Source of the DNA: a virus
Lineage: Duplodnaviria > Caudoviricetes
Direction: 5' to 3' (one strand)
DNA: 64,000 nucleotides
IMG/VR virus record: IMGVR_UViG_3300020187_001966
The notes below the pieces were generated by a model, which was given only the letters and a program-made list of their open reading frames with translations, did not search any database and was not told the DNA's origin. The stretch's first letter is position 1, and each line of letters starts with the position of its first letter. Positions 4,318-39,350 of the stretch are shown here, one piece after another. The position numbers and the translations under genes were made by a program.

Positions 4318-4695
4318 ATGAAAATAAATGAAGTTACACAAATAGTCGAAAAGACTGAAATTACTCTAGAAGATACACAAGACTTCCACGAAGAGTTTGG
4401 ATATCTGGCATACAGTATAGACGAAGGCGATCTATTTGAAGCAGAGTACCAAGGACGTAAAGTTAAACTAAACAAGCCAATGCGTGGTGATGTTAAGAAG
4501 TTTAAAGTATATGTAAAAGATGGCGACAAAGTAAAAAAAGTAAACTTTGGTCACGGCGGCACAAGTGCTAAACGTCCAACAATGCGTATACGCAAAAGCA
4601 ATCCAAAAGCACGTAAGAGTTTTAGAGCAAGACATAATTGCGATAATCCAGGACCAAAGACCAAGGCAAGATATTGGAGTTGCAGGGCCTGGTGA
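4318..4695 (+). CDS. Putative head-internal protein with basic Cys/Trp C-terminal domain
   Basis: N-terminus MKINEVTQIVE; after LFE a K/R-rich domain ending RHNC...RYWSCRAW. Confidence 0.7.
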   Translation: MKINEVTQIVEKTEITLEDTQDFHEEFGYLAYSIDEGDLFEAEYQGRKVKLNKPMRGDVKKFKVYVKDGDKVKKVNFGHGGTSAKRPTMRIRKSNPKARKSFRARHNCDNPGPKTKARYWSCRAW

Positions 4696-5315
4696 TGCAT
4701 TATACTATCTATAAAATAACTAACCAGATAAATGGAAAATATTACATTGGTAGGCACGCTACTAAAGATGTAAATGACTCCTATATGGGTAGTGGTATAG
4801 GCATTAAAAATGCTATTGCAAAGTACGGTGTTGAAAACTTTACTAAAGAAATTATTGCAACAGCAGACAATACAGATGCACTATGGGACTTAGAATTAAA
4901 AATCGTCAACGAAGATGTAGTGAAAGATACTATGTCTTACAATATGTCGTACGGTGGAAAGCATTACTTACATGGATTAAAACAATACGATTACGATGCA
5001 TTTATAGAGCATCAGCGCAAAGCAGGACAGCAATATGCTAAAAACTTTACAGGAAATTCTAAAGAATGGCATGCCAAGGGCGGTTCTAAAAGTTCTCGTA
5101 TGCGTAGCGAACAATACACGTATCGCATTACTACAAACGAAGGCGTAGAATATATTGTAAACGGTTTAGAATTTAAAGAACTATGTGCAGAGAAAGACTG
5201 GAACTATAATACCTTACACTGGAAGAAAAGCATGGGTAAATATATTAGTAGAGGCAAGCACAAAGGCTTCTTAGTAGAACAACTTAGTACGTATAAGCAG
5301 GAAGTGGTAACATGA
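4695..5315 (+). mobile_element. Free-standing GIY-YIG homing endonuclease (Seg-like)
   Basis: YTIYKITNQINGKYYIGRH...YMGSG...KYGVENFTKEII; TGATG coupling puts the start at 4695. Confidence 0.85.
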
Positions 5316-6457
5316 AAGCAACTGATTTAAACCTGAGTGAAATGCCAGCAATGACTTTACATGGTCCAGATGGGTTCGGACTTACACAATATAGTGGTGA
5401 TGAATATGCCCTAGTAGGCGGCTTTAGAGACGGAGCAAGTAACGCTGGTGAGTTGAGACTAAAGTATCAAATATATAGTCACGCTCTTATTGATGCTAAT
5501 GGCGGTGATTTTGCTAAAGGTGAAATTGGTTATTGTGTTGTAAGAGTAGCAAGTGATGATGGACCAGACCAAGGTGAAATTTTAGGTTTGATTGATATTG
5601 AACTAAAACCAAAGTATAGAAAAAGCGGACACGGCAAAAAGATTGTACGTGATATTGTTGATACAACAAAGTCAGGCAATTTAGATATACACGACATTCA
5701 AAAGAAAGCCAAGAAGTTCTGGGACAAGATGGGTGTTGAGTATGATGCGAAAAAGCCGGGCGCTAAGAATGCAGTACTTAGAAAACAATCTGAAAGTGTA
5801 CTAGACGAAGATATAGCTAGTGTTGCTGAAGTTACGGCTATGGCGGCAGTAGCAGGACTAGCCGCACCAGTAATGATGGCTATGCTTAAAGCGGCATACA
5901 AAACTGGAAAAGGTATTAACGCTATTAGAAAAATCGCAAATCGTGCAGGTGTTAAACTTGCTGATCGTGTAATGGGCGAAGAGCTAGAAGACTTTAATAA
6001 AGACGAACCAAACAAAAGTACAGTAGCAGTGCCTGGATATGGTACTATGAATGTTGATAGTTTGATGAAGAACATTGTTGACCAAACTACACAAATGGTA
6101 AAGCAAATGCAAGCTGGTACACAAGGATTTCGCAATGCTGATTATGCTTTAAATAGTAATAAAGTATTAGCAACCAAAGTAGCAGCATTAGTAAAAGCAC
6201 TAGATGACTTACAAGCAATACGTGCCAAAGGTGGTGCTAACAGTAAAAATATTCAACAAGAAGCAGAAGAAGAACAACAAGCTCTTCCAATTGACGTAAA
6301 CAAAATTATGGGTAATATACAAGAGTTTGAAAGTAAGAAATACATTAATCCAGAAGATGCTGATCTAATGAGACGTGGTGTACAAAGTTTAGCAACACCA
6401 AGACAAACAGTAAACCCTAATGCTATATTACAATTACTAACAATGGTAACAAGATGA
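5312..6457 (+). CDS. Putative internal protein with GNAT acetyltransferase domain
   Basis: MKATDLNLSE N-terminus; LIDIELKPKYRKSGHGKKIV resembles GNAT acetyl-CoA motif A. Confidence 0.6.
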   Translation: MKATDLNLSEMPAMTLHGPDGFGLTQYSGDEYALVGGFRDGASNAGELRLKYQIYSHALIDANGGDFAKGEIGYCVVRVASDDGPDQGEILGLIDIELKPKYRKSGHGKKIVRDIVDTTKSGNLDIHDIQKKAKKFWDKMGVEYDAKKPGAKNAVLRKQSESVLDEDIASVAEVTAMAAVAGLAAPVMMAMLKAAYKTGKGINAIRKIANRAGVKLADRVMGEELEDFNKDEPNKSTVAVPGYGTMNVDSLMKNIVDQTTQMVKQMQAGTQGFRNADYALNSNKVLATKVAALVKALDDLQAIRAKGGANSKNIQQEAEEEQQALPIDVNKIMGNIQEFESKKYINPEDADLMRRGVQSLATPRQTVNPNAILQLLTMVTR

Positions 6458-6654
6458 AAATCTCTCAGATTATATCAGAAGCAGGTGTTGGTAAGATAAC
6501 CAAATATAACACTACAGTAGATGTTAAGCCTGGCGAAACAGAACGTCAAGCAGCTAAGTTTTTCCCAATGAACAAAGGCGGAAAACCAAAGCCTCTTGGT
6601 GTTCCTGGTGCTACTCCTAATCAAGCATTTAATTTAGGACTAACTAAAACATGA
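6454..6654 (+). CDS. Small putative internal protein
   Basis: MKISQIISE|AGVGKITK; ATGA coupling on both sides. Confidence 0.7.
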   Translation: MKISQIISEAGVGKITKYNTTVDVKPGETERQAAKFFPMNKGGKPKPLGVPGATPNQAFNLGLTKT

Positions 6655-8591
6655 AGATCGATCAAATCACAGAAAACATGAGTCATACTAGTAAACGACT
6701 ACATGACATTGAAAAGGAAAAGGGTGTAAAGCCTGGTACTCCTGAGTGGTTTAAACTGTGGTTTAGTTTACCTTACCTTAAAGAAAGCACAGTTGTAGAA
6801 GGTTACAAACTACAATTAGAACGTGATACTGATATGATGGTATTAAATATTGTTGACACTGCTACAGGCAAGCGTACAGAAGTTCGTGGCAAGGCAGGCT
6901 ATGAGACTAACGGTTATGATAAAAATGACAAACTACATCAGTTACTAGATAAAATTAGTAAAACTGCTAATATCAGTGAACTAATGAACGGTGAACCTGT
7001 TGGTATCAACCCTAAACACCCAGACGGTGCTAGTGCAAAGAAAGCAACGACTAAAGCATTCAATGAAGCAAAAGATGGTCTACCAGTTAAAACACTCAAA
7101 GGATTATACCATGTCGGCACGATGGATTCATCTGAGAAGCGTGATGGCTTCGAGGGTGCAGGATTAAGCGTAAGTACACATCCTGATGCTTGGAAGCAGA
7201 TTGCTAGAGGTCACGTAACAGGTGATACTCACAGTGCTACAAAAGAAGGCAATAAATTCTTAGATGTACATAGTCTTTCAGACGCACACAATAAACAAAT
7301 CAAACAATGGGCAATCGAAAATGGCTACTTAGAACAGCAAGAAACTGTTACAGTATGTTACTATGATGATGAAATGGAAGATGATCTTTGTTCAACTTTC
7401 GACTCAATGGCAGATGCCGAAGCAGAGTATGATGAAGAACTAAAGCATATGGATGTAACAGTAGACAAGGGCGGCATTGTTCCTACTGATAAGCTGAAAA
7501 AAGAAACAAGACAAAATCGTATAGATTCAACAGGTGTGCTAGAGTTTGTACTACCAATATTTGCAGAACAACAAGGACTCGACGGTGTTTGGTGGCAAGA
7601 TAACCTAGATGTCCAGCGATATTCGGCACCACGTGGTGTTATTGTTCCTAGCAAGATTAAGTCTTGGAAGTTCACAGTTAACGAATCAATTACAGAAGCA
7701 TTTGATAATCCTTATTCATATTATTGGGATGATACATATAACGGCGATGACTCTTTTCTAGCTAAAGCTGAAATGGATATGGGCGAACTAATGGTTATGT
7801 TTTCAGTAGGCGAGCCAGGTGAAAGTTGGACTATTGACTTTGCGGTAGACGGATCAATGGACAAAACAGGTGACGGAGATCAGTTTAGAATCTTTGCTAC
7901 AGTAGTTGCAGTTATAAAAGACTGGATGGCTAATAAGGTAGATTTATCTAAAGTAACACAAATTGATTTTAGTTCTGACAAGGACGGCGAGGCAGAAGAT
8001 AGTAGAGCTAAACTATACAAACGTTTTGGTCAACAACTAGCAAGTAAACTTGGATGGAATTTAGAAGTCACAGATAGAGGACAATTTGCTTCCTTTAAGA
8101 TTAAGAATCCAAATGCTCCTGTGAAAGAAGCAGTTAATGAAGCAATAGAAATGAAAATTAGCGACTTGACTATCAGTGATGCTGGTATGGCAATCGCACA
8201 ATCAGTAGGTGGTGGAAGTAGAACAGATGCTCCGTTGGCAGTTACAAAACTTCCATCAGGCCATGTATATCTGGTAAATGGGTATCATAGATTAGTAGAT
8301 GCTATGCAGGCTGGCAAAGATACTGTATCGGTAGAATATGTTCCATATGAAAAAGTAGAAATACTTTGGAAACAAGAACGTGAACAAGATATCAAATACG
8401 GTAAACAGTTTAACGAAAACTTCGCAGACGGTAAAGTAAAAGGCAAAAGCAGACCAGGCAGAGTAAAGAAGTCAGGTGCTAGTTGTAATGGTAGCGTAAC
8501 AGAATTACGAGCAAAAGCAAAAAAAGCCAGCGGTGAGAAAGCAAAGATGTATCACTGGTGTGCCAACATGAAAGCTGGTAAGAAGAAATGA
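6651..8591 (+). CDS. Multi-module putative internal polyprotein (ART-like, ParB/Srx-like and basic modules)
   Basis: Modules bounded by ITE/LKE/FNE/VNE/VKE; LYHVGT...GLSVS (ART-like); VYLVNGYHRL (ParB-N-like). Confidence 0.6.
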   Translation: MKIDQITENMSHTSKRLHDIEKEKGVKPGTPEWFKLWFSLPYLKESTVVEGYKLQLERDTDMMVLNIVDTATGKRTEVRGKAGYETNGYDKNDKLHQLLDKISKTANISELMNGEPVGINPKHPDGASAKKATTKAFNEAKDGLPVKTLKGLYHVGTMDSSEKRDGFEGAGLSVSTHPDAWKQIARGHVTGDTHSATKEGNKFLDVHSLSDAHNKQIKQWAIENGYLEQQETVTVCYYDDEMEDDLCSTFDSMADAEAEYDEELKHMDVTVDKGGIVPTDKLKKETRQNRIDSTGVLEFVLPIFAEQQGLDGVWWQDNLDVQRYSAPRGVIVPSKIKSWKFTVNESITEAFDNPYSYYWDDTYNGDDSFLAKAEMDMGELMVMFSVGEPGESWTIDFAVDGSMDKTGDGDQFRIFATVVAVIKDWMANKVDLSKVTQIDFSSDKDGEAEDSRAKLYKRFGQQLASKLGWNLEVTDRGQFASFKIKNPNAPVKEAVNEAIEMKISDLTISDAGMAIAQSVGGGSRTDAPLAVTKLPSGHVYLVNGYHRLVDAMQAGKDTVSVEYVPYEKVEILWKQEREQDIKYGKQFNENFADGKVKGKSRPGRVKKSGASCNGSVTELRAKAKKASGEKAKMYHWCANMKAGKKK

Positions 8592-8806
8592 AGATGTTTT
8601 TTAAAAAGTGGTGGCGCAGTATGTTTCCACAATATATACTTGAAGTAAAACATCGTGGCGTTGAGCGCCGCATACATGTAGTAAAATTTCATAAGAAGAA
8701 TATGAAACGATTGGCAGGTATAAATGTTCATGGTGAGACCTTTGAACTAATGAGTAAAGAACCAATGGATTACTATGTAGTAGAATACAGGGATGATTTA
8801 AGATGA
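8588..8806 (+). CDS. Hypothetical protein
   Basis: 72 aa, ATGA-coupled on both sides. Confidence 0.65.
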   Translation: MKMFFKKWWRSMFPQYILEVKHRGVERRIHVVKFHKKNMKRLAGINVHGETFELMSKEPMDYYVVEYRDDLR

Positions 8807-9441
8807 AATTATCAGAATTATTAAACATCAACTTCCCTCAATTGGAGGAAGTGATGAGTACAGAAGATTTAGAGGACAAAGTCCAAAAACAAAAACAAGA
8901 CGCATTCAATAAAGCTATGCTTGACGCAATGCATCGTCTTGTAATGAGTAAAGACAAAAGAAGTAGTATTGGCAGCTATGCTTTTGATATATCACGTAGT
9001 TTTGGAGGAGTAAGTCCCAAAGAAGTTGAACGTATGTACCGTGACAAATATATGACTGAGGGAGAACAACTCCCTACAATAATAACGCAAACAATGTTGG
9101 ATACACTAGAAAAACATCTAGATAAAATGTTTTCATCAGTTGGCATTGATGTAGAGTTTACACGACACTTTTTAGACCGTGTAAATGATAACAGAAATAA
9201 AACGCAAATTACTCTAAAAGAGCTTGCTATTTTGTTTAAAGACGCTTATAATAAGTATGGTAAGCAAATAGCACAAATGGGTCCAGATGCGGAAGCTGTC
9301 ATTAAAGATATGCGCAGTGATGTTAATCTACCTTTTGTACTAAATTGGGATAGTAGTAATCAAGAGCTAGACTTAGTAGCAAAAACAGTTATGCGTAAAA
9401 AAGACTTCTTTACTCCTGATACAGAGCTTCCGTTAACATAA
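8803..9441 (+). CDS. Putative internal protein; C-terminal HFLDRVND...KTVMRK domain (possible RNase fold)
   Basis: MKLSELL N-terminus; second module after MTE|G. Confidence 0.55.
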   Translation: MKLSELLNINFPQLEEVMSTEDLEDKVQKQKQDAFNKAMLDAMHRLVMSKDKRSSIGSYAFDISRSFGGVSPKEVERMYRDKYMTEGEQLPTIITQTMLDTLEKHLDKMFSSVGIDVEFTRHFLDRVNDNRNKTQITLKELAILFKDAYNKYGKQIAQMGPDAEAVIKDMRSDVNLPFVLNWDSSNQELDLVAKTVMRKKDFFTPDTELPLT

Positions 9442-9468
9442 CATGTTATTAACAAATAACAGTTTACG

Positions 9469-9475
9469 ATAAATA
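9469..9475 (+). promoter_or_regulatory. T4-type late promoter
   Basis: GATAAATA in intergenic gap, 30 nt before ATG 9505 with SD GGAG. Confidence 0.6.
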
Positions 9476-9504
9476 ACTATATATAGAAAATCCGGAGTGT
9501 CTCA

Positions 9505-9981
9505 ATGAGATTAGAAAAAATACAAACAGCACAACAGGCGCAAGCTAAACCATCAGTGGCAAAAGTAGCTGAAGGTTACGCAGTGCGTGATGTTAATAAC
9601 AAAGAAGTAAAAGTTTTTGAAGACATTGATGTAGCAAAAAGCTATTTGAAGCGTCATATTACAGAACTTAAAGAAGGCCGTGAGCCAGTTGTATACATGA
9701 GTGAAATCATGGAAGGTGTCCTAGATGACACTGACGACGATGGTTGGATGGCAAAAAGTGAACTATACAAACTTTCAAAGTATGCTATTCAGTTACACGG
9801 TATGATCCAAGATAACGAAAATTTAGAACCTTGGGTACAAAGCAAAATCACAAAAGCAGCTGATTATATTAGTTCAGTAAAACATTATATGGAATACGTT
9901 CAAATGACTGACGGACAACCTGAAGTAGTAGACGACATGCCAATGGAAATACCAAACGAATTGCCACCTGAAGGAATGTAA
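9505..9981 (+). CDS. Putative prohead core/internal protein
   Basis: VAE|G, LKE|G, IME|G sites; DGWMAKSEL...LEPWVQSKITKAADY domain typical of large T4-like phages. Confidence 0.6.
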   Translation: MRLEKIQTAQQAQAKPSVAKVAEGYAVRDVNNKEVKVFEDIDVAKSYLKRHITELKEGREPVVYMSEIMEGVLDDTDDDGWMAKSELYKLSKYAIQLHGMIQDNENLEPWVQSKITKAADYISSVKHYMEYVQMTDGQPEVVDDMPMEIPNELPPEGM

Positions 9982-9983
9982 TA

Positions 9984-11597
9984 ATGAAGTTTACTGATTT
10001 TACTGAAAAAGTTATTGAATCTATTGTTAACGAAGAAGCAGCTATTAAACTTGATTTTGATCAAGTGAGGATAAGAATACCTGCTAACGATAATACTAGA
10101 CCAACTACTGGAGAAGTTATTGATTTAGATTCTCGTCGAGCTGCAGCAAAAGATGCTCTTAGTAAAATGTCAGAAGCAGACAGAAAATCTGCAAACGAAT
10201 TTATTAAAAAGAACAAAACTCTACTACAAAGACTATCGTCTGTAGGAGCCAGATCAGCAGCAAGACATGGTGTAGCAACAATTTCAAGTGTAGCATCAGG
10301 CCCACTTGCGCCAGCAGTAGCAGCAGTATTAAATGTAGCAATGCTAGGTTGGGATTTAGCTGATGCCGGCGTTGAAATATGGGACTGGGCAAAATCAAAC
10401 AATGCTAAAGATATTAAACAAGGTAATGCTGGTCGAGCCTATGGCAATGATTTAGCAATGGTAGTTCCAAGATCACCTAGACAGAATTCAAGAGACGATG
10501 ATGCGTATGAAATAAAACATTTAACTCAACAATCACAATTTGGTGCTGCTGGTATGAGAGATCAAGCTGCTCGATTACTATCACAACGTCAAGCTGAATA
10601 CCGCAGAGATCAACAAGAATGGGACAAAGAGTTTGGAAAAACACACTTAGATAACGGCACAGCAAATCCAGATGCAGGTTATCAAGATAAAATAATGAGA
10701 ATTGCGCAAGCAGGTAGAGATGCTCAAAATAAAGCAAGTGATAACGAGCTTATTAAAAAAGCACAACAAAAACCTCAAGATATTCCTCCTGTTGTTAATT
10801 TTACAAATATTCCACCATTGATCACACCATCGTTTACCCCAGGCACAATTAACAACCCAACTGGAGAATTCACTCCCCCTGAATTTGACCCTAATGCTCC
10901 TGAGTTCCCTGAGTTACCTAAAAGGGGTAAACCATTTAAAGCACCAGAAACACCTATAGAGCCAGCTCCAAAAGGCCCTAAAGTTATAACTAAATCACCA
11001 ACCCAACCAAAAAGAACCGACAAGGATCTGGAAAATCCAATAGTACCTGGAGAATTCACTCCCCCTGAATTTGACCCTAATGCTCCTGAGTTCCCTGATT
11101 TACCTAAAAGGGATGATCCGTTTAAAGCACCAAAGCCACCTGTAGAGCCAACTCCAAAAGGCCCTAAAGTTGTAACTACCCCACCTAAACAACCAAAAAG
11201 AACCGACAAGGATCTGGAAAATCCAATAGTACCTGGAGAATTCACTCCCCCTGCATTTGACCCTAATGCTCCTGAGTTCCCTGAGTTACCTAAAAGGGGT
11301 AAACCATTTACAGAACCAGAGTTGCCAAAAGAATTACCAAAAGAATTACCAAAAGAATTACCAAAAAAGTACACCCCTCCTGCTATAACCCCTAATCCAC
11401 ATGCCGGGATAGTTATTGGGAAAAAAGGTAAAACTGATACTAAGACAAAAACCAAGGAAAAACCTAAAGGCAAGACGACAAGTAGACGTGTTGGTGGTGA
11501 TGCTGGCAGTGGTGATCGCATTAAGTCAACGGCTAATCAAATGAAGTTCAGCCCTATAAATATTAGAGACCCACTAAACTTAAAGAGATATGGATAA
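9984..11597 (+). CDS. Putative internal protein with Pro-rich tandem repeats
   Basis: MKFTDFTE...IVNE|E start; 62-aa repeats and (ELPK)x4. Confidence 0.7.
   Translation: MKFTDFTEKVIESIVNEEAAIKLDFDQVRIRIPANDNTRPTTGEVIDLDSRRAAAKDALSKMSEADRKSANEFIKKNKTLLQRLSSVGARSAARHGVATISSVASGPLAPAVAAVLNVAMLGWDLADAGVEIWDWAKSNNAKDIKQGNAGRAYGNDLAMVVPRSPRQNSRDDDAYEIKHLTQQSQFGAAGMRDQAARLLSQRQAEYRRDQQEWDKEFGKTHLDNGTANPDAGYQDKIMRIAQAGRDAQNKASDNELIKKAQQKPQDIPPVVNFTNIPPLITPSFTPGTINNPTGEFTPPEFDPNAPEFPELPKRGKPFKAPETPIEPAPKGPKVITKSPTQPKRTDKDLENPIVPGEFTPPEFDPNAPEFPDLPKRDDPFKAPKPPVEPTPKGPKVVTTPPKQPKRTDKDLENPIVPGEFTPPAFDPNAPEFPELPKRGKPFTEPELPKELPKELPKELPKKYTPPAITPNPHAGIVIGKKGKTDTKTKTKEKPKGKTTSRRVGGDAGSGDRIKSTANQMKFSPINIRDPLNLKRYG
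10861..11310 (+). repeat. 186-bp in-frame tandem repeat, about 2.4 copies
   Basis: CTGGAGAATTCACTCCCCCT... starts at 10861, 11047 and 11233. Confidence 0.92.
11319..11366 (+). repeat. 12-bp tandem repeat x4 encoding ELPK
   Basis: GAGTTGCCAAAA followed by GAATTACCAAAA x3. Confidence 0.92.
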
Positions 11598-11600
11598 GAA

Positions 11601-13421
11601 ATGATACACAAAATAGCAAAACAAATCATAGCAGAAGCTAGACAAAGCAGAACTAATTATGCTGTTACACAACAGCCATATGATAAAATTAAAGCAAATA
11701 TGTACACCATATTTGAATGCTATGCTCGTGGTATTATTGACTGGGACATTTCAAAAACAAAACTACAAAATGTAATTAAAGAGTATGTAAATTTATATCC
11801 ACTAGAAGAGCGTAAAGCTGAAGTTAAAATTATGCGTGAAGAATATAAACGTATCACAACAGACTATAAACTAGCACTAGACGAATATCGTGTAGTTGCT
11901 GAACAAAAAATGACAAGTAGTTTAGTAGCAAAACAAAAACTAGACGAAAGTACAGCGCAACATCACAGTAATGTATTTTACAATGGACGTAATTTAACTG
12001 AATCAGATCTTAAAGATATTGCTACACTTAAAACATGGCAACGTGTAATGGAAGCGTATCCTAACCTTACAACAAAAGAAGAAGAGCTTGTACGTACACT
12101 TGAAAACACATATGATACTAAAGACTTTGAATTTAATCCAAGAGCTGGTCATAGAGATCAAATGGCACATCCAGAAAATCAAGGATTAGGTCCATCAAAT
12201 ATGTCTAGCCCACGTCCCAAGTTACGTCCTAAAAAACTAGCTCCAATGTCAAGTCCACGTCCACAAGCCCGTCCAGCAAACTTACAAATGCGTAATGATA
12301 TTAATAAAGCAGTACAGCAGGCAGTTGGAGAAGGCGATAGCCCACACAAAAAAGGTACAGCAAAGTACAAAGCACATATGGCGGCAATGCATGCTGAAGG
12401 ATATAAAGAGTTGCCGCCAATTAACAGAGATCGTTATCAAGAACGTGACGGTCTAGAAGGACCATTCAGTACACTAAGTGGTAAGGTAGTTTATTATGAT
12501 CCAAAAGAAGGTTCGTACTACGATCCAGACACAGATATGTATATGAGTTATGGCGAATTCAAAGCACTTGACAACGACTATAGTAACATGAAAGACGAAC
12601 GTGACATCGACGTAAAAGAAGAAATGAGCAATGACGAAGTAGATGCGTTCCATCGTGCACTAGATGAACTTGTGCACAAGCACTTAGGTCACAGCTCACA
12701 TGAGAAAGAAATGGACGAAGTTGAAGAAACACTTAGCCCAGAAGAGAAAAAGCAAGTCAATCAAATGTACAACAAAGACGGTACGTTAACTGACATTGGT
12801 AAAAAAGTTATGAGCCAAGGACAAATACAAGATATCCTTAAAAAAGCAATGAAGCAACTTAAAGGTATTGATGCCCAAGCAAAGTTTACACACAGAGATT
12901 TAAATCAAGCAGTTGCTACAATTAATCAAGGTAATATTCCAGGCGCACTACAAGAATTAGTAAATGGTGTAGATGGTCCTGAGCCACAAATACAAGACAC
13001 ATTTAATGACGCACATGATGATTTACAGAGACTTATTAACCCTAAAACAGACAAAGAACTAGATGATGAGTATTGGCAAGACGTATCCGATATGAAAGCA
13101 AAAAGCAGAGCTGGCGTAGAATCAATTGTTCATGATGTATTTGATACAGCACTTGAAGAAATGACAAGCGCAGGTGCTATTGCCAGTGTAGCAACACCAA
13201 TGGGTAAAATGAAACGCCGTAAAGACAGTATTTTTGCTGACAAAGAAACTAAAGGCGATGTAATGACTGAAGCACAGTTTGACGAAGCGGCAGGCGAAAA
13301 AGATGCTTGTTATCGTAAAGTAAAATCACGTTATAAAGTATGGCCAAGTGCTTATGCTAGTGGCGCATTAACAAAATGTCGTAAAGTTGGAGCAGCCAAC
13401 TGGGGAAAAAGTAAGAAGTAA
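11601..13421 (+). CDS. Multi-module putative internal/core polyprotein
   Basis: IAE|A, LDE|S, LTE|S, VGE|G, VKE|E, LEE|M, MTE|A, FDE|A sites; basic C-terminal DACYRKVK...SAYASGALTKCRK module. Confidence 0.6.
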   Translation: MIHKIAKQIIAEARQSRTNYAVTQQPYDKIKANMYTIFECYARGIIDWDISKTKLQNVIKEYVNLYPLEERKAEVKIMREEYKRITTDYKLALDEYRVVAEQKMTSSLVAKQKLDESTAQHHSNVFYNGRNLTESDLKDIATLKTWQRVMEAYPNLTTKEEELVRTLENTYDTKDFEFNPRAGHRDQMAHPENQGLGPSNMSSPRPKLRPKKLAPMSSPRPQARPANLQMRNDINKAVQQAVGEGDSPHKKGTAKYKAHMAAMHAEGYKELPPINRDRYQERDGLEGPFSTLSGKVVYYDPKEGSYYDPDTDMYMSYGEFKALDNDYSNMKDERDIDVKEEMSNDEVDAFHRALDELVHKHLGHSSHEKEMDEVEETLSPEEKKQVNQMYNKDGTLTDIGKKVMSQGQIQDILKKAMKQLKGIDAQAKFTHRDLNQAVATINQGNIPGALQELVNGVDGPEPQIQDTFNDAHDDLQRLINPKTDKELDDEYWQDVSDMKAKSRAGVESIVHDVFDTALEEMTSAGAIASVATPMGKMKRRKDSIFADKETKGDVMTEAQFDEAAGEKDACYRKVKSRYKVWPSAYASGALTKCRKVGAANWGKSKK

Positions 13422-13424
13422 TAA

Positions 13425-14279
13425 ATGGGTAACCGGAATCAAAATAGCACAGATTATATTCACGCAGATGAACCAAACATTTTAAATGTTCATAAAGCTA
13501 TGGATTATAATCAGCAAGGGCAACCGCTACTAAGAACAACTGGTAGTAGTTATGATTGGATTATTAACATTAGCGCAGGTGCGGTTGATGGTACTGGTTA
13601 TATTGAAAAGTTCGGCATGAACACTGATGTAGACAGCGACAAAGAAACAATTTGGGACGGTGGAGGTATATATACGTATCTATCCACTGGCGAGAAACTT
13701 TCAGTTACTAGCAGCAGTGTTAATGATAGCGCATCTGGATCAGGTGCTCGTACTGTAGAGATACAAGGTTGTAATGATGCTGGAGAGGTTATTTTAGAAA
13801 CTGTTGAGATTGGTAGTGCAAGTACTCAATTGTTTAAACGTGTGTTTCGTGTAAAGGTTGTAACATCAGGCACAAGCGGAGTTAATGAAGGTATTATTAA
13901 TATTACTAGTCTGGTATCTACAACAATAGTTGCTCAAATTGGAGTTGATGGCACTGGTAGTAATGCAGCAGGACGTGGACAAACATTCATGGCGTTGTAT
14001 ACAGTACCAGTAGGAAAAACAGCATATTTGACACAATGGACTGTTGGTTGTGGTAAGCAAAATACAGATGCTATTGCTACATTTATGGCAAAAACACCAG
14101 CTGGTGCTTGGAATGCTAAAGATATTATTACAGTTAGCGCAACTACATACACTAAAGATTATAAGATTCCAATACAGTTTACAGAACAAACAGATATAGA
14201 AGTACGTGCTTATAGTAGTGTAAACAATTCACTAGTAAGTAGTACGTTTAACTTATTGATAATAGACAACCCGGTATAA
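13425..14279 (+). CDS. Putative virion structural protein (Gly/Ser/Thr-rich beta-sandwich)
   Basis: Composition and position in the late cluster; KFG.N.D...ETIWDGGG.Y pattern recalled from marine phage structural proteins. Confidence 0.5.
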   Translation: MGNRNQNSTDYIHADEPNILNVHKAMDYNQQGQPLLRTTGSSYDWIINISAGAVDGTGYIEKFGMNTDVDSDKETIWDGGGIYTYLSTGEKLSVTSSSVNDSASGSGARTVEIQGCNDAGEVILETVEIGSASTQLFKRVFRVKVVTSGTSGVNEGIINITSLVSTTIVAQIGVDGTGSNAAGRGQTFMALYTVPVGKTAYLTQWTVGCGKQNTDAIATFMAKTPAGAWNAKDIITVSATTYTKDYKIPIQFTEQTDIEVRAYSSVNNSLVSSTFNLLIIDNPV

Positions 14280-14282
14280 ATA
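14275..14282 (+). promoter_or_regulatory. T4-type late promoter, 5 nt before ATG (leaderless)
   Basis: Perfect TATAAATA; ATG at 14288; no SD. Confidence 0.7.
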
Positions 14283-14287
14283 TTTAC

Positions 14288-14599
14288 ATGCTTATAGAAG
14301 ACATCATAACAGAAGATTTACGGGCATGGTTCGGCAAAGGCAAAAAAGGCGGGGCCGGCGGAGGTGGCTGGGATCGTTACAACAGCAAAGGCGAACGTGT
14401 TGGCAAATGTGGAGATGGCGAAGGCAAAGGCAAACCAAAGTGTCTAAGTAAAAGCGCAGCCGCTAAACTACGTAATGCTGACAAAAACAAAGACGGCAAA
14501 AAAGACGGAGCAAAAGGTATTGCTACCGCAGTTAAACGTAAAAAATCAAAAGACCCTAATCCTAATCGCAAGGGCAAAGCAAAGAACGTAAAGAACTAA
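14288..14599 (+). CDS. Small, highly basic putative internal protein
   Basis: MLIEDIITE|DLRAWFG; K/G-rich with two Cys. Confidence 0.7.
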   Translation: MLIEDIITEDLRAWFGKGKKGGAGGGGWDRYNSKGERVGKCGDGEGKGKPKCLSKSAAAKLRNADKNKDGKKDGAKGIATAVKRKKSKDPNPNRKGKAKNVKN

Positions 14600-33851: not shown

Positions 33852-33859
33852 TATAAATA
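33852..33859 (+). promoter_or_regulatory. T4-type late promoter, 5 nt before ATG (leaderless)
   Basis: Perfect TATAAATA; ATG 33865; no SD. Confidence 0.7.
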
Positions 33860-33864
33860 ATAAC

Positions 33865-34971
33865 ATGAGATATACACAGTTTAAACCAGATAACATTAAT
33901 GAAGGCGGCAATAGTTCAGGAGTACGTTACAACAGTGAAGTAGGCTTACTACATACGTTTGCTGGAGCAAAAGAATTTGATCCTAATGATGTTGCTGGAA
34001 GTTTTGACTTATCAAAATTAGAAAACCCAGAAGCTGTTGTTGCTGGAATACAAAAGTTTTTAGTACCAGATTACAATGAGAAGATTTTTTCTGCTTGGAG
34101 AAATATTGGTGAACTGTATCAATCACATATGGCTAGTAAATTGTCTACTATGCCTACTCGCTTTGGTTGGGTAGGTGGTGCTAATGCTGGACCAGTTGCT
34201 GATGTAGAATTTATTGATCATGAATGTTCTGGTATTAGTGTTAAAGATGCTGGTGGTATTACACTTAAAAATCTAACTCCAAAATCACTAGGCATTGATG
34301 GCGAATACGGTATTGACGTATTTGCGTATCATGCTGAAGAAGATTATATTAAAATGAAGCAAGCAATCTTTAATGATGTTATGGATCTTGCACAGAAAAG
34401 TCCAGACACTCGCATTGCGCCAATAACAGACAAATACGCTATTACATATCTATCGCAACAAGATAAATTTTATTGCGAAGGTAAAAACAAAGTAGAACTA
34501 TCACGCAACGATATTTTAAATTCAGTATCAAAGAATGCCAAATGGCAACGTGTTTTTGGAGATTGGTTCCAAGCTAATTGGTCCACTAAGAAACAGTATG
34601 CTGAACCACTATACTTAGATATTGCCAAAACTTTTGAGAAAGTTATTGAAAACTCATTACAAGACAGATCTAAATTAACAACAACACTAGCATTTGAAGA
34701 CAAATCGTATTTTTATGCTACGCCTAAGAGCTTATTCTTTGTCCCAAGTGTTAATGACTTAGACGATATTTCCATTAAAAATTTAAAATATGGAGCACCA
34801 GACGGTACTTCACAAAAGTACCTTGCTGAAATTGGTATGCCAGGTAGTATAGAAAATGCCGCAATTATAATATACATTCGTTATGCTAATGGCATGTTTG
34901 AAACTAACCCAACAGTCAGAATACAGAGTTTAAGGAACCCTGAGTTTATTGGCTGGCAAAAACTAGTATAA
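33865..34971 (+). CDS. Putative PD-(D/E)xK restriction-endonuclease-like protein with capsid-targeting-like N-terminus
   Basis: YNSE...WVGG.N..PVADVEF...GISVK...TLKNLT; N-terminus ...NINE|G. Confidence 0.55.
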   Translation: MRYTQFKPDNINEGGNSSGVRYNSEVGLLHTFAGAKEFDPNDVAGSFDLSKLENPEAVVAGIQKFLVPDYNEKIFSAWRNIGELYQSHMASKLSTMPTRFGWVGGANAGPVADVEFIDHECSGISVKDAGGITLKNLTPKSLGIDGEYGIDVFAYHAEEDYIKMKQAIFNDVMDLAQKSPDTRIAPITDKYAITYLSQQDKFYCEGKNKVELSRNDILNSVSKNAKWQRVFGDWFQANWSTKKQYAEPLYLDIAKTFEKVIENSLQDRSKLTTTLAFEDKSYFYATPKSLFFVPSVNDLDDISIKNLKYGAPDGTSQKYLAEIGMPGSIENAAIIIYIRYANGMFETNPTVRIQSLRNPEFIGWQKLV

Positions 34972-34978
34972 AAATATC

Positions 34979-35007
34979 TTGACAATTAAAAGTTATCGTA
35001 GTATAGT
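34979..35007 (+). promoter_or_regulatory. sigma70-type early promoter
   Basis: TTGACA-17-TATAGT. Confidence 0.85.
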
Positions 35008-35045
35008 GTTACTATACAAGGTGTCATAATGACTACAGGACAACA

Positions 35046-35969
35046 ATGCTTAAACCAGTTAATGAAAATCTAGACAGTGTTACAATAACAGATGTGGAAG
35101 ATCACAAACTGATTAGTAATGATGATCTAAATCGAGATCTTAAAAACTTAAAGAACTTTGATGCTGATGAGAATCGCAATAACTTTTATGGCAATCCTTT
35201 CCTATATCACTTTCAATTTAAAAACTTACTAAACTGTAAGCGTGAAAAAGGCAAAACTATTCATGAGCTGTATGCTGATAAACCAGCATGGAAAAAACTT
35301 ATAGATAGCGCACGTAAGCGTAACAGAGGCGGGCGTACTGCCGCAGGTAATATTTTTGAGTGCTTTAGAATTAATCTTGGTAGTATTGTAATGTTTAAAA
35401 GTACAACAGCCAAGTATCTATACAAGAAGTATTCAGTTAAAAGTGTATTAGATCCTACAGCAGGTTGGGGTGGACGTATGCTTGGTGCTTGGGCATTAGG
35501 CATTAACTATACTGGCATTGATACAAATACTAATATGAAATCAGCATATGATCGTATGATGAAGTATCTTAGCGGCTATAGTGAATTTAATAATCCACTA
35601 ATAGAAGAAGAACAATCTGGTAAATTAGAAATGATTTGGCAAAGCGCACTTGATGTAGACTTTAGTAAGTTAGAGTATGACTTTGTGTTAACAAGTCCTC
35701 CATATGTTAATCTAGAAATATATGAACACATGGAAGTATGGGATAGTGACGAAGCATTTTATAAAGGATTCTTCATTCCTATCTGGCAAAAGTGTGTTGA
35801 CAATATACAAGCAGGAGGACATGTGTGCTTTAACATTAGTCCTAAAATGTATGATGATGCTGTCGCAAACGGACTGCCAGTATGTGATGATGAAGAAGAC
35901 TTAAAGCAACAACTAGGCCAACAAACAGGCAAAAAGAAACAAGACAAAATATACATTTGGAAATGTTGA
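35046..35969 (+). CDS. DNA amino-methyltransferase (N4-C/N6-A type)
   Basis: Motif I LDPTAGWGGR, GIDTN; motif IV TSPPY. Confidence 0.85.
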   Translation: MLKPVNENLDSVTITDVEDHKLISNDDLNRDLKNLKNFDADENRNNFYGNPFLYHFQFKNLLNCKREKGKTIHELYADKPAWKKLIDSARKRNRGGRTAAGNIFECFRINLGSIVMFKSTTAKYLYKKYSVKSVLDPTAGWGGRMLGAWALGINYTGIDTNTNMKSAYDRMMKYLSGYSEFNNPLIEEEQSGKLEMIWQSALDVDFSKLEYDFVLTSPPYVNLEIYEHMEVWDSDEAFYKGFFIPIWQKCVDNIQAGGHVCFNISPKMYDDAVANGLPVCDDEEDLKQQLGQQTGKKKQDKIYIWKC

Positions 35970-37139: not shown

Positions 37140-38246
37140 ATGATCGACGAGATATATAAATTCTGGAATATAACACCTGAGTATATCTTTAGTGACGAGT
37201 TTACAGGGTACGAAGACTTGTATCCTGAATTCGACAAACACACAAAAGAAACTTATGAACGTGATCCAGACGGTACCATAAATGCCGTCTTTGCTCTGTA
37301 TCGTACAAGAGGTATTGTTCCTATTATATACTATACTGAGACAGGACTAAAGACTGCTATACGTGAATTCTGTAATAAGTCATACAACAATGTCCAAGGA
37401 GATAGATTAGGGTTAGGCAATAATGCTGGACAAACTATCAATCGCTTTATCTTTACAAACATGCAAACAGCAGAGCCCAAGGGTCGTGGAAGTAACAGTC
37501 TTAAAGATAGGTTTTTTGATGATGCTAAACTAAAACGTGCTATACGTATTTGTTTTGAGTTTAGAGAAGGCAACAAGTTGTGTTATCCTACAGCAATGCG
37601 CAGAAGTCTAGAGCTAGTTACTGGAGAAAATGTAACTAACTTTAAAGCACAAAACGCCAAAAGTATTGTTGAGCGTCTGTGTCCAGTTATATGGGGTAAT
37701 GTATACGACTATAGTTGTGGTTATGGCGGACGTTTACTTGGTATTACTAGCAGTAACATGCGGTATAAGTATATTGGTACAGACCCAAACACAGAAACAT
37801 ATCAATATTTAAATTACTTAAACAGTATAATTGGCGGTAACGCAGAGATACATTGCCAAACATCACAGGACTTTCAACCAGAAGATATAGACTTAGCATT
37901 TAGTAGTCCTCCTTACTTTAACTTAGAAAAGTACAGTGATGAGCCTACACAGTGTATGGTACAATTTAATACACTGGACGAATGGTTTGATGGATATACT
38001 GTTCCTACTATGGAAAATATATACCGTGGATTAAATAATGATGGTATTTTTGCTACTAACATAGCAGATTACAAAACTACAAAAGATGAATTCAAAGTTG
38101 TAGATAGATGGATACAAACCGCAGAGAAGGTTGGGTTCAAACATACAGAAACAATTAAGATGATGCTTAACACACGGCCTGGTGTTGGCAATGATAAACT
38201 AGCAGGTCGAGAAAAGTGGGAAGGCGTATACGTCTTCACCAAATAA
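37140..38246 (+). CDS. Second DNA amino-methyltransferase
   Basis: YDYSCGYGGRLLG, GTDPN, FSSPPYFNLE. Confidence 0.85.
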   Translation: MIDEIYKFWNITPEYIFSDEFTGYEDLYPEFDKHTKETYERDPDGTINAVFALYRTRGIVPIIYYTETGLKTAIREFCNKSYNNVQGDRLGLGNNAGQTINRFIFTNMQTAEPKGRGSNSLKDRFFDDAKLKRAIRICFEFREGNKLCYPTAMRRSLELVTGENVTNFKAQNAKSIVERLCPVIWGNVYDYSCGYGGRLLGITSSNMRYKYIGTDPNTETYQYLNYLNSIIGGNAEIHCQTSQDFQPEDIDLAFSSPPYFNLEKYSDEPTQCMVQFNTLDEWFDGYTVPTMENIYRGLNNDGIFATNIADYKTTKDEFKVVDRWIQTAEKVGFKHTETIKMMLNTRPGVGNDKLAGREKWEGVYVFTK

Positions 38247-38258
38247 AAAGGTTAATAA

Positions 38259-39350
38259 ATGAACAACTATATTTTTACAAGCGAAAGTGTAAGTGACGGT
38301 CATCCAGATAAAGTAGCAGATCAGATATCTGATGCCCTGGTGGATGCTGGACTAGCTAATGGCGACGAGACAACTCGTGTTGCTGTTGAAACACTTGTAA
38401 CCACTAACCATGTAACGGTAGCGGGTGAAGTAAAGAACTTTAATGTAAACAACGTAAAAGAGATTATACGTGACAAAGTTAAAGAAATCGGATACGAACA
38501 AGACGGGTTCCATTGGGACAACTTAAACATCTACAATGAGATACACGCACAAAGTGGAGACATTGCTCTAGGCACAGACGACTTTGGAGCAGGAGATCAA
38601 GGACTAATGTTTGGCTATGCTTGTAATCATACAGACAGTATGATGCCAGCACCTATTCATTACAGTCACGAGATCTTAAAGAACTTGAAAAGCAAGCGTG
38701 GTAATATACTAGGACCAGATGCTAAGAGTCAAGTAAGTGTAGAGTACTATGGTGCTAGACGTGACGGTGTAATCAAACGCATTGATCAAGTCGTGATAAG
38801 TACTCAGCACACAGAAGGCAATGTACAAGAGGCTCGACACCTTTGTAAACTTGCCGCAATGGAAGAATTAGGAGATTTAGTCGATGAAAGAACTACATGG
38901 CATCTTAACCCTACTGGAAATTTCGTTATTGGCGGTCCTGACGGTGATGCTGGTGTTACTGGGCGAAAAATTATTGTTGATACTTATGGGGGTTTTGCTC
39001 CTCATGGTGGCGGTGCGTTTAGTGGCAAAGACCCAACAAAAGTCGACAGAAGTGCAGCCTACATGGCCAGATGGCTTGCGAAGAATGTAGTAGCAGACAG
39101 CATGGCAGACTGGTGTAATATCCAGTTATCTTATGCTATTGGTGTAAAAGAACCTACAAGCATTTATGTTGACAGTAATGGACACAATGCTAGTATTGCT
39201 AACTTTATTGAGCGTGAAATTGACTTAACCCCAAAAGGAATCATTGACAGATTTGATTTATTCAACTATACTAACTATAGCGAAAACTGCACATACGGAC
39301 ACTTTGGAAACAAAGATGTACCATGGGAAAGGATTGGATGGAATGCTTAA
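38259..39350 (+). CDS. metK: S-adenosylmethionine synthetase
   Basis: FTSESVSDGHPDK, GAGDQG, GPDAKSQ, GGPDGDAGVTGRK, GGAFSGKD. Confidence 0.96.
   Translation: MNNYIFTSESVSDGHPDKVADQISDALVDAGLANGDETTRVAVETLVTTNHVTVAGEVKNFNVNNVKEIIRDKVKEIGYEQDGFHWDNLNIYNEIHAQSGDIALGTDDFGAGDQGLMFGYACNHTDSMMPAPIHYSHEILKNLKSKRGNILGPDAKSQVSVEYYGARRDGVIKRIDQVVISTQHTEGNVQEARHLCKLAAMEELGDLVDERTTWHLNPTGNFVIGGPDGDAGVTGRKIIVDTYGGFAPHGGGAFSGKDPTKVDRSAAYMARWLAKNVVADSMADWCNIQLSYAIGVKEPTSIYVDSNGHNASIANFIEREIDLTPKGIIDRFDLFNYTNYSENCTYGHFGNKDVPWERIGWNA

Follow-up and report, generated by a model that had tools for sequence, protein, structure and literature searches.

The ORF A locus

We have analysed a 64-kb stretch of DNA from a tailed virus (IMG/VR record IMGVR_UViG_3300020187_001966), the whole of which (positions 1-64000) is called the window here, and within it a gene that appears to encode a restriction enzyme. 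The gene, open reading frame (ORF) A, lies at 33865-34971 and encodes a protein of 368 amino acids (aa), predicted from its sequence, its homologues and a structural model to be PD-(D/E)xK restriction-endonuclease-like and to belong to an unannotated family. After a gap of 74 nucleotides (nt) it is followed by the gene for MT_B (35046-35969), an amino-methyltransferase of 307 aa that is the candidate protecting methyltransferase (MTase). These genes, the promoters before them and the MT_C gene (see below) are on the plus strand. A first-pass annotation of this DNA had proposed that the two genes form a restriction-modification (R-M)-like pair separated in time, with a nuclease that is made late and directed to the capsid, and an MTase that is made early. 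The 368-aa gene, the SPPY methyltransferase that follows it and the sequence features on which that proposal was built are all real, and lie where it placed them.

The phage to which the window belongs is T4-like; it has tail genes and a DNA polymerase of family B. Near-identical sequence is present in marine and estuarine runs of 13 studies dated 2014-2025. The phage is abundant, and it therefore seems feasible to apply proteomics and methylome analysis to environmental material that already exists.

The fold of ORF A and its conserved residues

ORF A has no match in Pfam, PHROGs, NCBIfam or PADLOC, and none among 50,697 GenBank phage records searched by tblastn and megablast. Metagenomic data contain at least 223 homologues, forming 84 clusters at 50% identity. 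These are mostly 360-390 aa in length and are conserved strongly over the full length, and several are carried by contigs of 100-330 kb. Profile searches of PDB sequences using alignments A1 and A2 gave matches at chance level only, and Pfam scans of 58 homologues revealed no restriction endonuclease (REase) family. The profile PF09556 (i.e. the HaeIII family) matched neither ORF A nor the 58 homologues, even when the E-value limit was relaxed to between 1 and 10, and five carrier contigs searched with the PF09556 hidden Markov model (HMM) yielded nothing; in the Atlas this family is reported for just 10-19% of the members of neighbouring clusters. ORF A is not a member of the HaeIII family at the level of sequence.

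An AlphaFold2 model of ORF A was built on an alignment of 52 sequences (A3). The model is confident, with a predicted local distance difference test score (pLDDT) of 93.1 and a predicted template modelling score of 0.87; pLDDT falls below 50 only at residues 1-15. The chain begins with a helix (residues 17-33) followed by an extra helical insert (residues 43-92), then strands at 100-102, 114-116, 121-126 and 135-137, and finally helices. In the model this order of elements is the canonical PD-(D/E)xK arrangement.

The residues expected of such a core are found in the appropriate places. E25 (33937-33939) is carried on helix 17-33 and is the candidate metal-binding glutamate. D113 (34201-34203; A112-D113 at 34198-34203) directly precedes strand 114-116 and would be the aspartate of the PD motif, while S125-V-K127 (34237-34245, within G123-I-S-V-K127 at 34231-34245) lies at the end of strand 121-126 and would correspond to the (D/E)xK motif. 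Across the 52 sequences, which extend down to 21% identity, W102, D113, G123, K127, G232 and W364 are invariant, and E25, S125, N136, D151, R339 and Q354 nearly so; D113 is also invariant in A1 and A2. E25, D113 and K127 do not vary in the sequences from 41 of 41 loci, where position 125 is serine in 39 and glutamine in the other two. The (D/E)xK motif is therefore a variant, because serine (or glutamine) occupies the acidic position. HinP1I and MspI likewise have a non-acidic residue (Q or N) there. A nuclease core of the form E...AD...GISVK had been suggested from the sequence, and the model, the fold matches and the invariant residues bear this out.

Structural comparison points consistently to type II enzymes. 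A search of the AlphaFold database (AFDB) clusters by Foldseek gave 'Restriction endonuclease' (E 2.2e-6, probability 1.0) and 'HaeIII family restriction endonuclease' (E 1.8e-5, probability 1.0), the latter with template modelling (TM) scores of 0.46/0.56 over residues 18-368, i.e. most of ORF A; this is a comparison of predicted models on both sides, with TM below 0.6. In Swiss-Prot only two proteins matched at a probability above 0.9, and these were BsuRI (E 6.8e-4) and HaeIII (E 1.3e-3, probability 0.99). An exhaustive search by VIA-align gave its longest alignments, among the 50 matches listed, with HinP1I (Z 5.3, 183 residues) and MspI (Z 4.9, 170 residues). The nearest named Atlas clusters, found as language-model neighbours, are all type II REases, namely HaeIII, HpaII, HinP1I and MspI. 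We consider it highly probable from the model that ORF A has the fold of a type II restriction enzyme. The family is a previously unannotated, predicted restriction-enzyme family with hundreds of members; it probably includes several specificities, and its members may serve as reagents.

We note that four uncharacterised AFDB cluster matches (A0A6C0IST3, A0A6C0BEQ2, A0A6C0ESW7 and A0A6C0JAU6) also have the ORF A fold, with Foldseek E-values of 5e-5 to 1e-3; we take this block of accessions to be from a giant-virus metagenome study. Nucleocytoviricota clusters occur among the Atlas neighbours of MT_B. There are hints here of related R-M-like modules in giant viruses.

MT_B and its surroundings

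MT_B has both of the motifs expected of the SPPY amino-MTase that had been noted after ORF A. Motif I is DPTAGWGG (aa 136-143, 35451-35474), and motif IV is SPPY (aa 217-220, 35694-35705). The profile matches are to PF01555 (weak, 8.5e-5) and to a PADLOC type II MTase (2.6e-9); automatic names in the Atlas include 'cytosine-N4-specific', which we treat as a lead only. A role for MT_B as the preQ1 methylase DpdM was considered and rejected, because DpdM does not belong to the SPPY enzymes but is a metal-cluster protein of DUF3109 (PMC10516641).

The genes around ORF A encode FolE, QueE, a phosphoribosyltransferase, a protein with a weak TGT/DpdA-like match, a second SPPY MTase and MetK, so that its location inside a base-modification island, as first described, is well founded. 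The second SPPY enzyme, MT_C (37140-38246, 368 aa), is a possible alternative protector. It is 25% identical to MT_B over 161 residues, and is followed by the gene for MetK (38259-39350), a full-length S-adenosylmethionine synthetase (E 2e-124). The protecting modification could be that made by MT_B, that made by MT_C or a 7-deazaguanine, and the choice between these is a matter of inference.

Linkage of nuclease and methyltransferase genes

The nuclease gene lies beside an MTase gene in the window, as in a type II R-M system, and the same association is widespread among the homologues. Homologues of MT_B (65-99% identity) adjoin ORF A homologues in 12 loci. Within the set of 41 loci an MTase of 289-313 aa is directly beside the ORF A homologue in L001, L007/8/20, L018/21, L029/36/39, L038, L022/23, L010, L019 and L033, and lies one to four genes away in L025/26, L027 and L037. 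The partners fall into three unrelated classes, i.e. the MT_B type, the beta class (PF01555) and the D12 class (PF02086). An MTase gene is adjacent in all six of the distant homologues examined; in five a D12 gene directly follows, with gaps of -1 to 61 nt, and in the sixth an MT_B-like gene is directly upstream. Some short contigs contain an R and an M gene and nothing else. In G002, a complete genome of 328 kb, PF01555 matches just one gene, which overlaps the stop codon of the ORF A homologue, and a D12 MTase was not found. In G001 and G006 the sole detected MTase is next to or near the ORF A homologue.

Such MTases have a low base rate, so that adjacency by chance is very unlikely. The arrangement of these genes supports a functional link between ORF A and DNA methyltransferases, and the basic form of the family would be an ordinary R-then-M gene pair. 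We also considered whether ORF A might be a methyl-dependent nuclease of type IIM. We rejected this as improbable, since the gene adjoins MTase genes or is co-transcribed with them.

Palindromes are strongly avoided in the window. CGCG occurs twice compared with 61 expected, AAGCTT is absent compared with 11.6 expected, and GGCC and TGCA are present at 0.42 of expectation. This could reflect restriction pressure from the host, or self-protection against a phage-borne nuclease; the palindrome statistics of the window did not identify a recognition site for ORF A.

Promoters and transcription

The ORF A gene is preceded by TATAAATA, a T4-type late-promoter box at 33852-33859, in agreement with the late promoter originally assigned. 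The box ends 5 nt before the ATG, the A of which (33865) is 6 nt past its last base. Its position is conserved across homologues; in roughly two thirds of the loci examined the ATG is preceded at a fixed spacing (-15, -13 or -12) by a NATAAATA box, and there is no Shine-Dalgarno sequence between box and ATG in these loci. The late box of T4 occupies the -10 position (PMC2988020), so the transcript would start at or beside the AUG, giving a leaderless late mRNA.

The same geometry is found at a 103-aa ORF elsewhere in the window (box 14275-14282, ATG 14288). At these two sites of the window, and upstream of the ORF A homologues of loci L005-L039, the -10 element, either the late NATAAATA box or a sigma70 TATAAT, comes to an end 5-8 nt ahead of the ATG, and a Shine-Dalgarno sequence is lacking. 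The sequences imply that leaderless mRNAs would be made from the ORF A homologues, from some of the partner MTase genes (L001, L007/18/29) and from the 103-aa ORF at 14288.

A promoter of different type lies in the gap before MT_B. This is sigma70-like (TTGACA-17-TATAGT, 34979-35007), and it is conserved in the close relative L038. It had been described as perfect, but matches the consensus at 11 of 12 positions and is thus near-perfect. In the window, L038, L001, L007/18/29 and L043, the MTase gene that follows the ORF A homologue has a sigma70-like promoter of its own. The split layout that had been proposed, with a late box for the nuclease and a sigma70-like promoter for the MTase, therefore recurs in several relatives, but it is not universal, since the nuclease gene has a promoter of sigma70 type in some homologues.

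Read from the sequence, a perfect 7-bp inverted repeat (GTATAGT-GTT-ACTATAC, 35001-35017) overlaps the -10 hexamer; in L038 one arm has a one-base mismatch. It could act as an operator or form a 5′ hairpin. Two seawater metatranscriptome studies have RNA contigs that start at 35025/35026, i.e. 20 nt before the ATG of MT_B and ~18 nt past the -10 hexamer, a weak hint of the start of the MTase transcript. In the RNA contigs of two seawater studies (X17 and X18) the flanks and the MTase are covered and the body of ORF A (33986-34909) is not, but a gap of this kind in contigs does not count as evidence, and we do not use it. Two other RNA runs cover the whole locus in long contigs, which may include DNA.

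The N-terminal leader

ORF A begins with MRYTQFKPDNINE (residues 1-13, 33865-33903), ending in I-x-E and followed by GG. The distant homologues start MGG(K/R)S..T(K/R)Y.TE, exactly at G14 of ORF A, and residues 1-13 are therefore an N-terminal addition peculiar to the T4-like clade. The model shows residues 1-15 as disordered. The leader is within the range of about 10-20 residues expected of T4-type capsid-targeted proteins, ends in (L/I)-x-E and is separable from the folded body. The prohead protease gp21 cleaves by the rule (L/I)-x-E, and cleavage after E13 would generate a GG N-terminus, the same as that of the leader-less homologues once the initiator methionine is removed. The start of the distant homologues and the disorder of residues 1-15 support G14 as the point of processing, as had been predicted. 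A gp21-type prohead protease (PF03420) is encoded on three of the four carrier contigs searched, including the complete 328-kb genome.

Across the clade the leader can be written as M-[RK]-hydrophobic-x-[ED]-hydrophobic ... [LIV]-x-E; GG generally comes next, and the pattern is kept even where the GG has been lost. In sequence it resembles the capsid-targeting sequence of phage T4, which serves to load heads with internal proteins and even with foreign nucleases (PMC3012670). We lean towards the view that ORF A is packaged in the phage head.

The N-terminal pattern is present in nine of the 92 ORFs of the window, i.e. ORF A and eight others clustered at 4318-14599. The eight are consecutive or nearly so; MKINEVTQIVE, MKFTDFTEKVIE and MLIEDIITE are among their T4 capsid-targeting-like N-termini, and late-promoter boxes precede some of them. 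Their sequences suggest a cluster of head-internal or ejected proteins.

A proposed function for ORF A

We suggest the following scheme, in which the activity of ORF A, its timing, packaging, processing and target, and the modification that protects against it, are inferred. In the T4-like clade an R-M nuclease gene would have acquired two additions, a leader of the capsid-targeting type and a late promoter that starts the mRNA at the AUG, while the neighbouring MTase gene would have retained its own early promoter of sigma70 type. Early in infection new phage DNA would be made resistant by MT_B, by other modifications of the island, or by both. The nuclease would be made late and carried into the prohead by its leader, where a gp21-type protease would trim it to G14. 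In the next infection it would be ejected together with the DNA, and would cut unmodified DNA of the host or of a rival phage. Restriction would then become a means of attack, directed at the host chromosome and at co-infecting phages from the first seconds onwards.

How far this can be accepted differs between its parts. The analysis supports the fold class, the conservation of catalytic-type residues, the linkage to MTases, the separability of the leader and the promoter motifs with their conservation. We give an even chance to ORF A being a site-specific, Mg-dependent type II-like REase that is packaged by means of its leader and injected. The broader proposal, that widespread marine T4-like phages load a site-specific REase using a cleavable leader and inject it with their self-protected DNA, so that restriction is used offensively, is put forward tentatively, as a possibility somewhat short of even.

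A number of observations weigh against this scheme. The family is recognised by no sequence HMM, that of PF09556 included. Serine replaces the usual acidic residue of the (D/E)xK motif, so a compensating acidic residue must be assumed. The VIA-align Z of about 5 is middling on the calibration of that tool. Foldseek found REases among the AFDB clusters and in Swiss-Prot, but among solved structures there was no match at E <= 0.001. TATAAATA occurs seven times in the window compared with 8.35 expected by chance; this is not above chance, and its significance therefore rests on its conserved position. The nuclease gene is preceded by a sigma70-type promoter instead of a late one in L028, L033 and L034/35, and the leader is missing from L034/35 and L002. 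Adjacency to three classes of MTase bears out the anticipated synteny of a restriction-modification-like pair, but at about half of the distinct T4-like loci there is no MTase gene closer than 3 kb. Moreover, the partner MTases are a mixture of adenine-specific D12 enzymes and putative N4-cytosine enzymes. Finally, a nuclease packed against the phage's own DNA requires that self-protection be complete.

A complication for the pairing of ORF A with MT_B comes from L038. This is a close relative, with flanks of ~86% nucleotide identity and 99% and 91% amino-acid identity in MT_B and MT_C respectively. Yet the body of its ORF A (window 33965-34963, corresponding to L038:4101-5182) has been replaced by an allele of 39% identity, while MT_B has been kept. 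The replacement spares the first ~100 nt of the gene, encoding the leader and the first conserved block; its breakpoints are just past these ~100 nt and at the stop codon. The incoming allele shares 74% identity with the one carried near a D12 MTase by L037, an unrelated contig. The two genes adjoin as described in the first-pass annotation, but a strictly cognate ORF A/MT_B pair is hard to square with exchange of the nuclease allele and not of the MTase, which lowers our confidence in MT_B as the cognate protector. It is possible that the two alleles share one specificity, that protection is provided by another modification such as 7-deazaguanine or that of MT_C, or that the gene is turned over as a cassette under selection.

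The best-surviving alternative, which we nevertheless regard as unlikely, is that ORF A is a late-made REase that is not packaged and acts within the infected cell, for example on remaining host DNA in nucleotide salvage or against a superinfecting phage, with the leader having another role or none. The nuclease fold and the linkage to MTases fit this equally well, leader-less members sit in ordinary R-M operons, and some T4-like members have sigma70-type promoters. The leader weighs against it. The pattern is kept across the T4-like clade even without the following GG, it is shared with eight other ORFs of the window, some of them behind late-promoter boxes, and the segment is disordered and ends exactly where leader-less homologues start.

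A packaged and injected ORF A could alternatively serve in counter-defence or protect DNA, its fold being used to bind DNA or protein, or for non-specific cutting. The model for this is IPI* of T4, which blocks a modification-dependent host nuclease. The T4 internal proteins that have such a leader are diverse anti-restriction factors (PMC3012670), the ORF A gene sits within a DNA hypermodification island, and the cassette-like exchange of alleles in L038 resembles the turnover of an arms race. By contrast, E25, D113 and K127, which are residues of catalytic type, do not vary anywhere in the family, and the R-then-M operons of distant members are better explained by an active, methylation-sensitive nuclease. 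In addition, a 368-aa protein that is 45-58% identical over its full length is unlike the small, fast-evolving internal proteins of T4. We think this explanation improbable, more so than the preceding one. A late nuclease for replication or packaging of the phage's own DNA, like T4 endonuclease VII or gp4, with proximity to MTases a by-product of clustering, would account for the late promoter and a possible association with the head, gp4 being a virion-associated head-completion nuclease of REase fold (PMC7824862), but is very doubtful given that MTases of three unrelated classes adjoin the gene in many genomic contexts (including the sole detected N6_N4/D12 MTase of G002), that short contigs hold R and M alone, that the fold is matched best by site-specific enzymes of type II, and that none of the 50,697 GenBank phage records searched contains the gene, which is therefore not a core T4 function.

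R-M is normally seen as a bacterial defence. If the proposal of a packaged and injected REase is correct, a natural tailed phage wields it as a weapon delivered by the virion, and ORF A would add a new class to the effectors that phages inject. The presence of extra methyltransferases in some heavily modified marine phages would be explained as well.

Comparison with known systems

In our limited literature searches we found no natural restriction enzyme of a tailed phage with a capsid-targeting leader, and no natural REase-type cargo in the T4 family. As proposed, the system would work like a type II R-M pair and like the packaged REases of the chloroviruses, with a loading signal of T4 type; the Mom-REase modules of jumbo phages and the virion nuclease gp4 are further partial precedents (PMC7824862).

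The closest relatives in predicted structure are HaeIII, BsuRI, HinP1I and MspI. ORF A shares with these its predicted fold class and the order of the core, with a glutamate on the helix, an aspartate before the second strand and x-K on the third, and its gene likewise lies beside that of a DNA methyltransferase. It differs in that there is no detectable sequence similarity, and ORF A is larger (368 aa), with the helical insert at 43-92. It is also phage-borne, and most members have the leader and late promoter. Furthermore HaeIII and BsuRI have C5 MTases, whereas the partners of ORF A are amino-MTases (D12, beta-class and SPPY type).

In the jumbo phages, Mom-REase fusions similarly combine a self-protecting modification with a nuclease of REase fold that is predicted to attack host DNA or that of rivals (PMC7824862). 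In that case the two activities are fused and no delivery by the virion has been suggested, whereas ORF A and its MTase are encoded by separate genes with promoters of different types.

The internal proteins IPI, IPII and IPIII of T4 provide the parallel for packaging. Like ORF A they have a leader of the form M-K/R-x-hydrophobic-x-E-hydrophobic ... (L/I)-x-E and a late promoter, and gp21-type protease genes are present in related genomes that carry ORF A homologues. They are small, basic, fast-evolving inhibitors, while ORF A has a nuclease fold. A foreign nuclease has been packaged artificially in T4 using the capsid-targeting leader (PMC3012670). ORF A would be a natural version of these engineered fusions, and a concrete natural example of an enzyme targeted to the capsid in the manner of T4.

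A last parallel is with the chloroviruses. These viruses (e.g. PBCV-1) have adjacent R and M genes, and the REase is packaged while the MTase is not (PMC7019647). The enzyme is introduced along with the genome, and its presumed role is to break down host DNA in a matter of minutes (PMC7019647). The adjacent genes are shared with ORF A, for which we propose the same working model. The chloroviruses are giant viruses of eukaryotic algae that use another route of packaging, whereas packaging of ORF A is suggested by its T4-type leader. If the proposal is correct, ORF A is the tailed-phage counterpart of the packaged REases of the chloroviruses.

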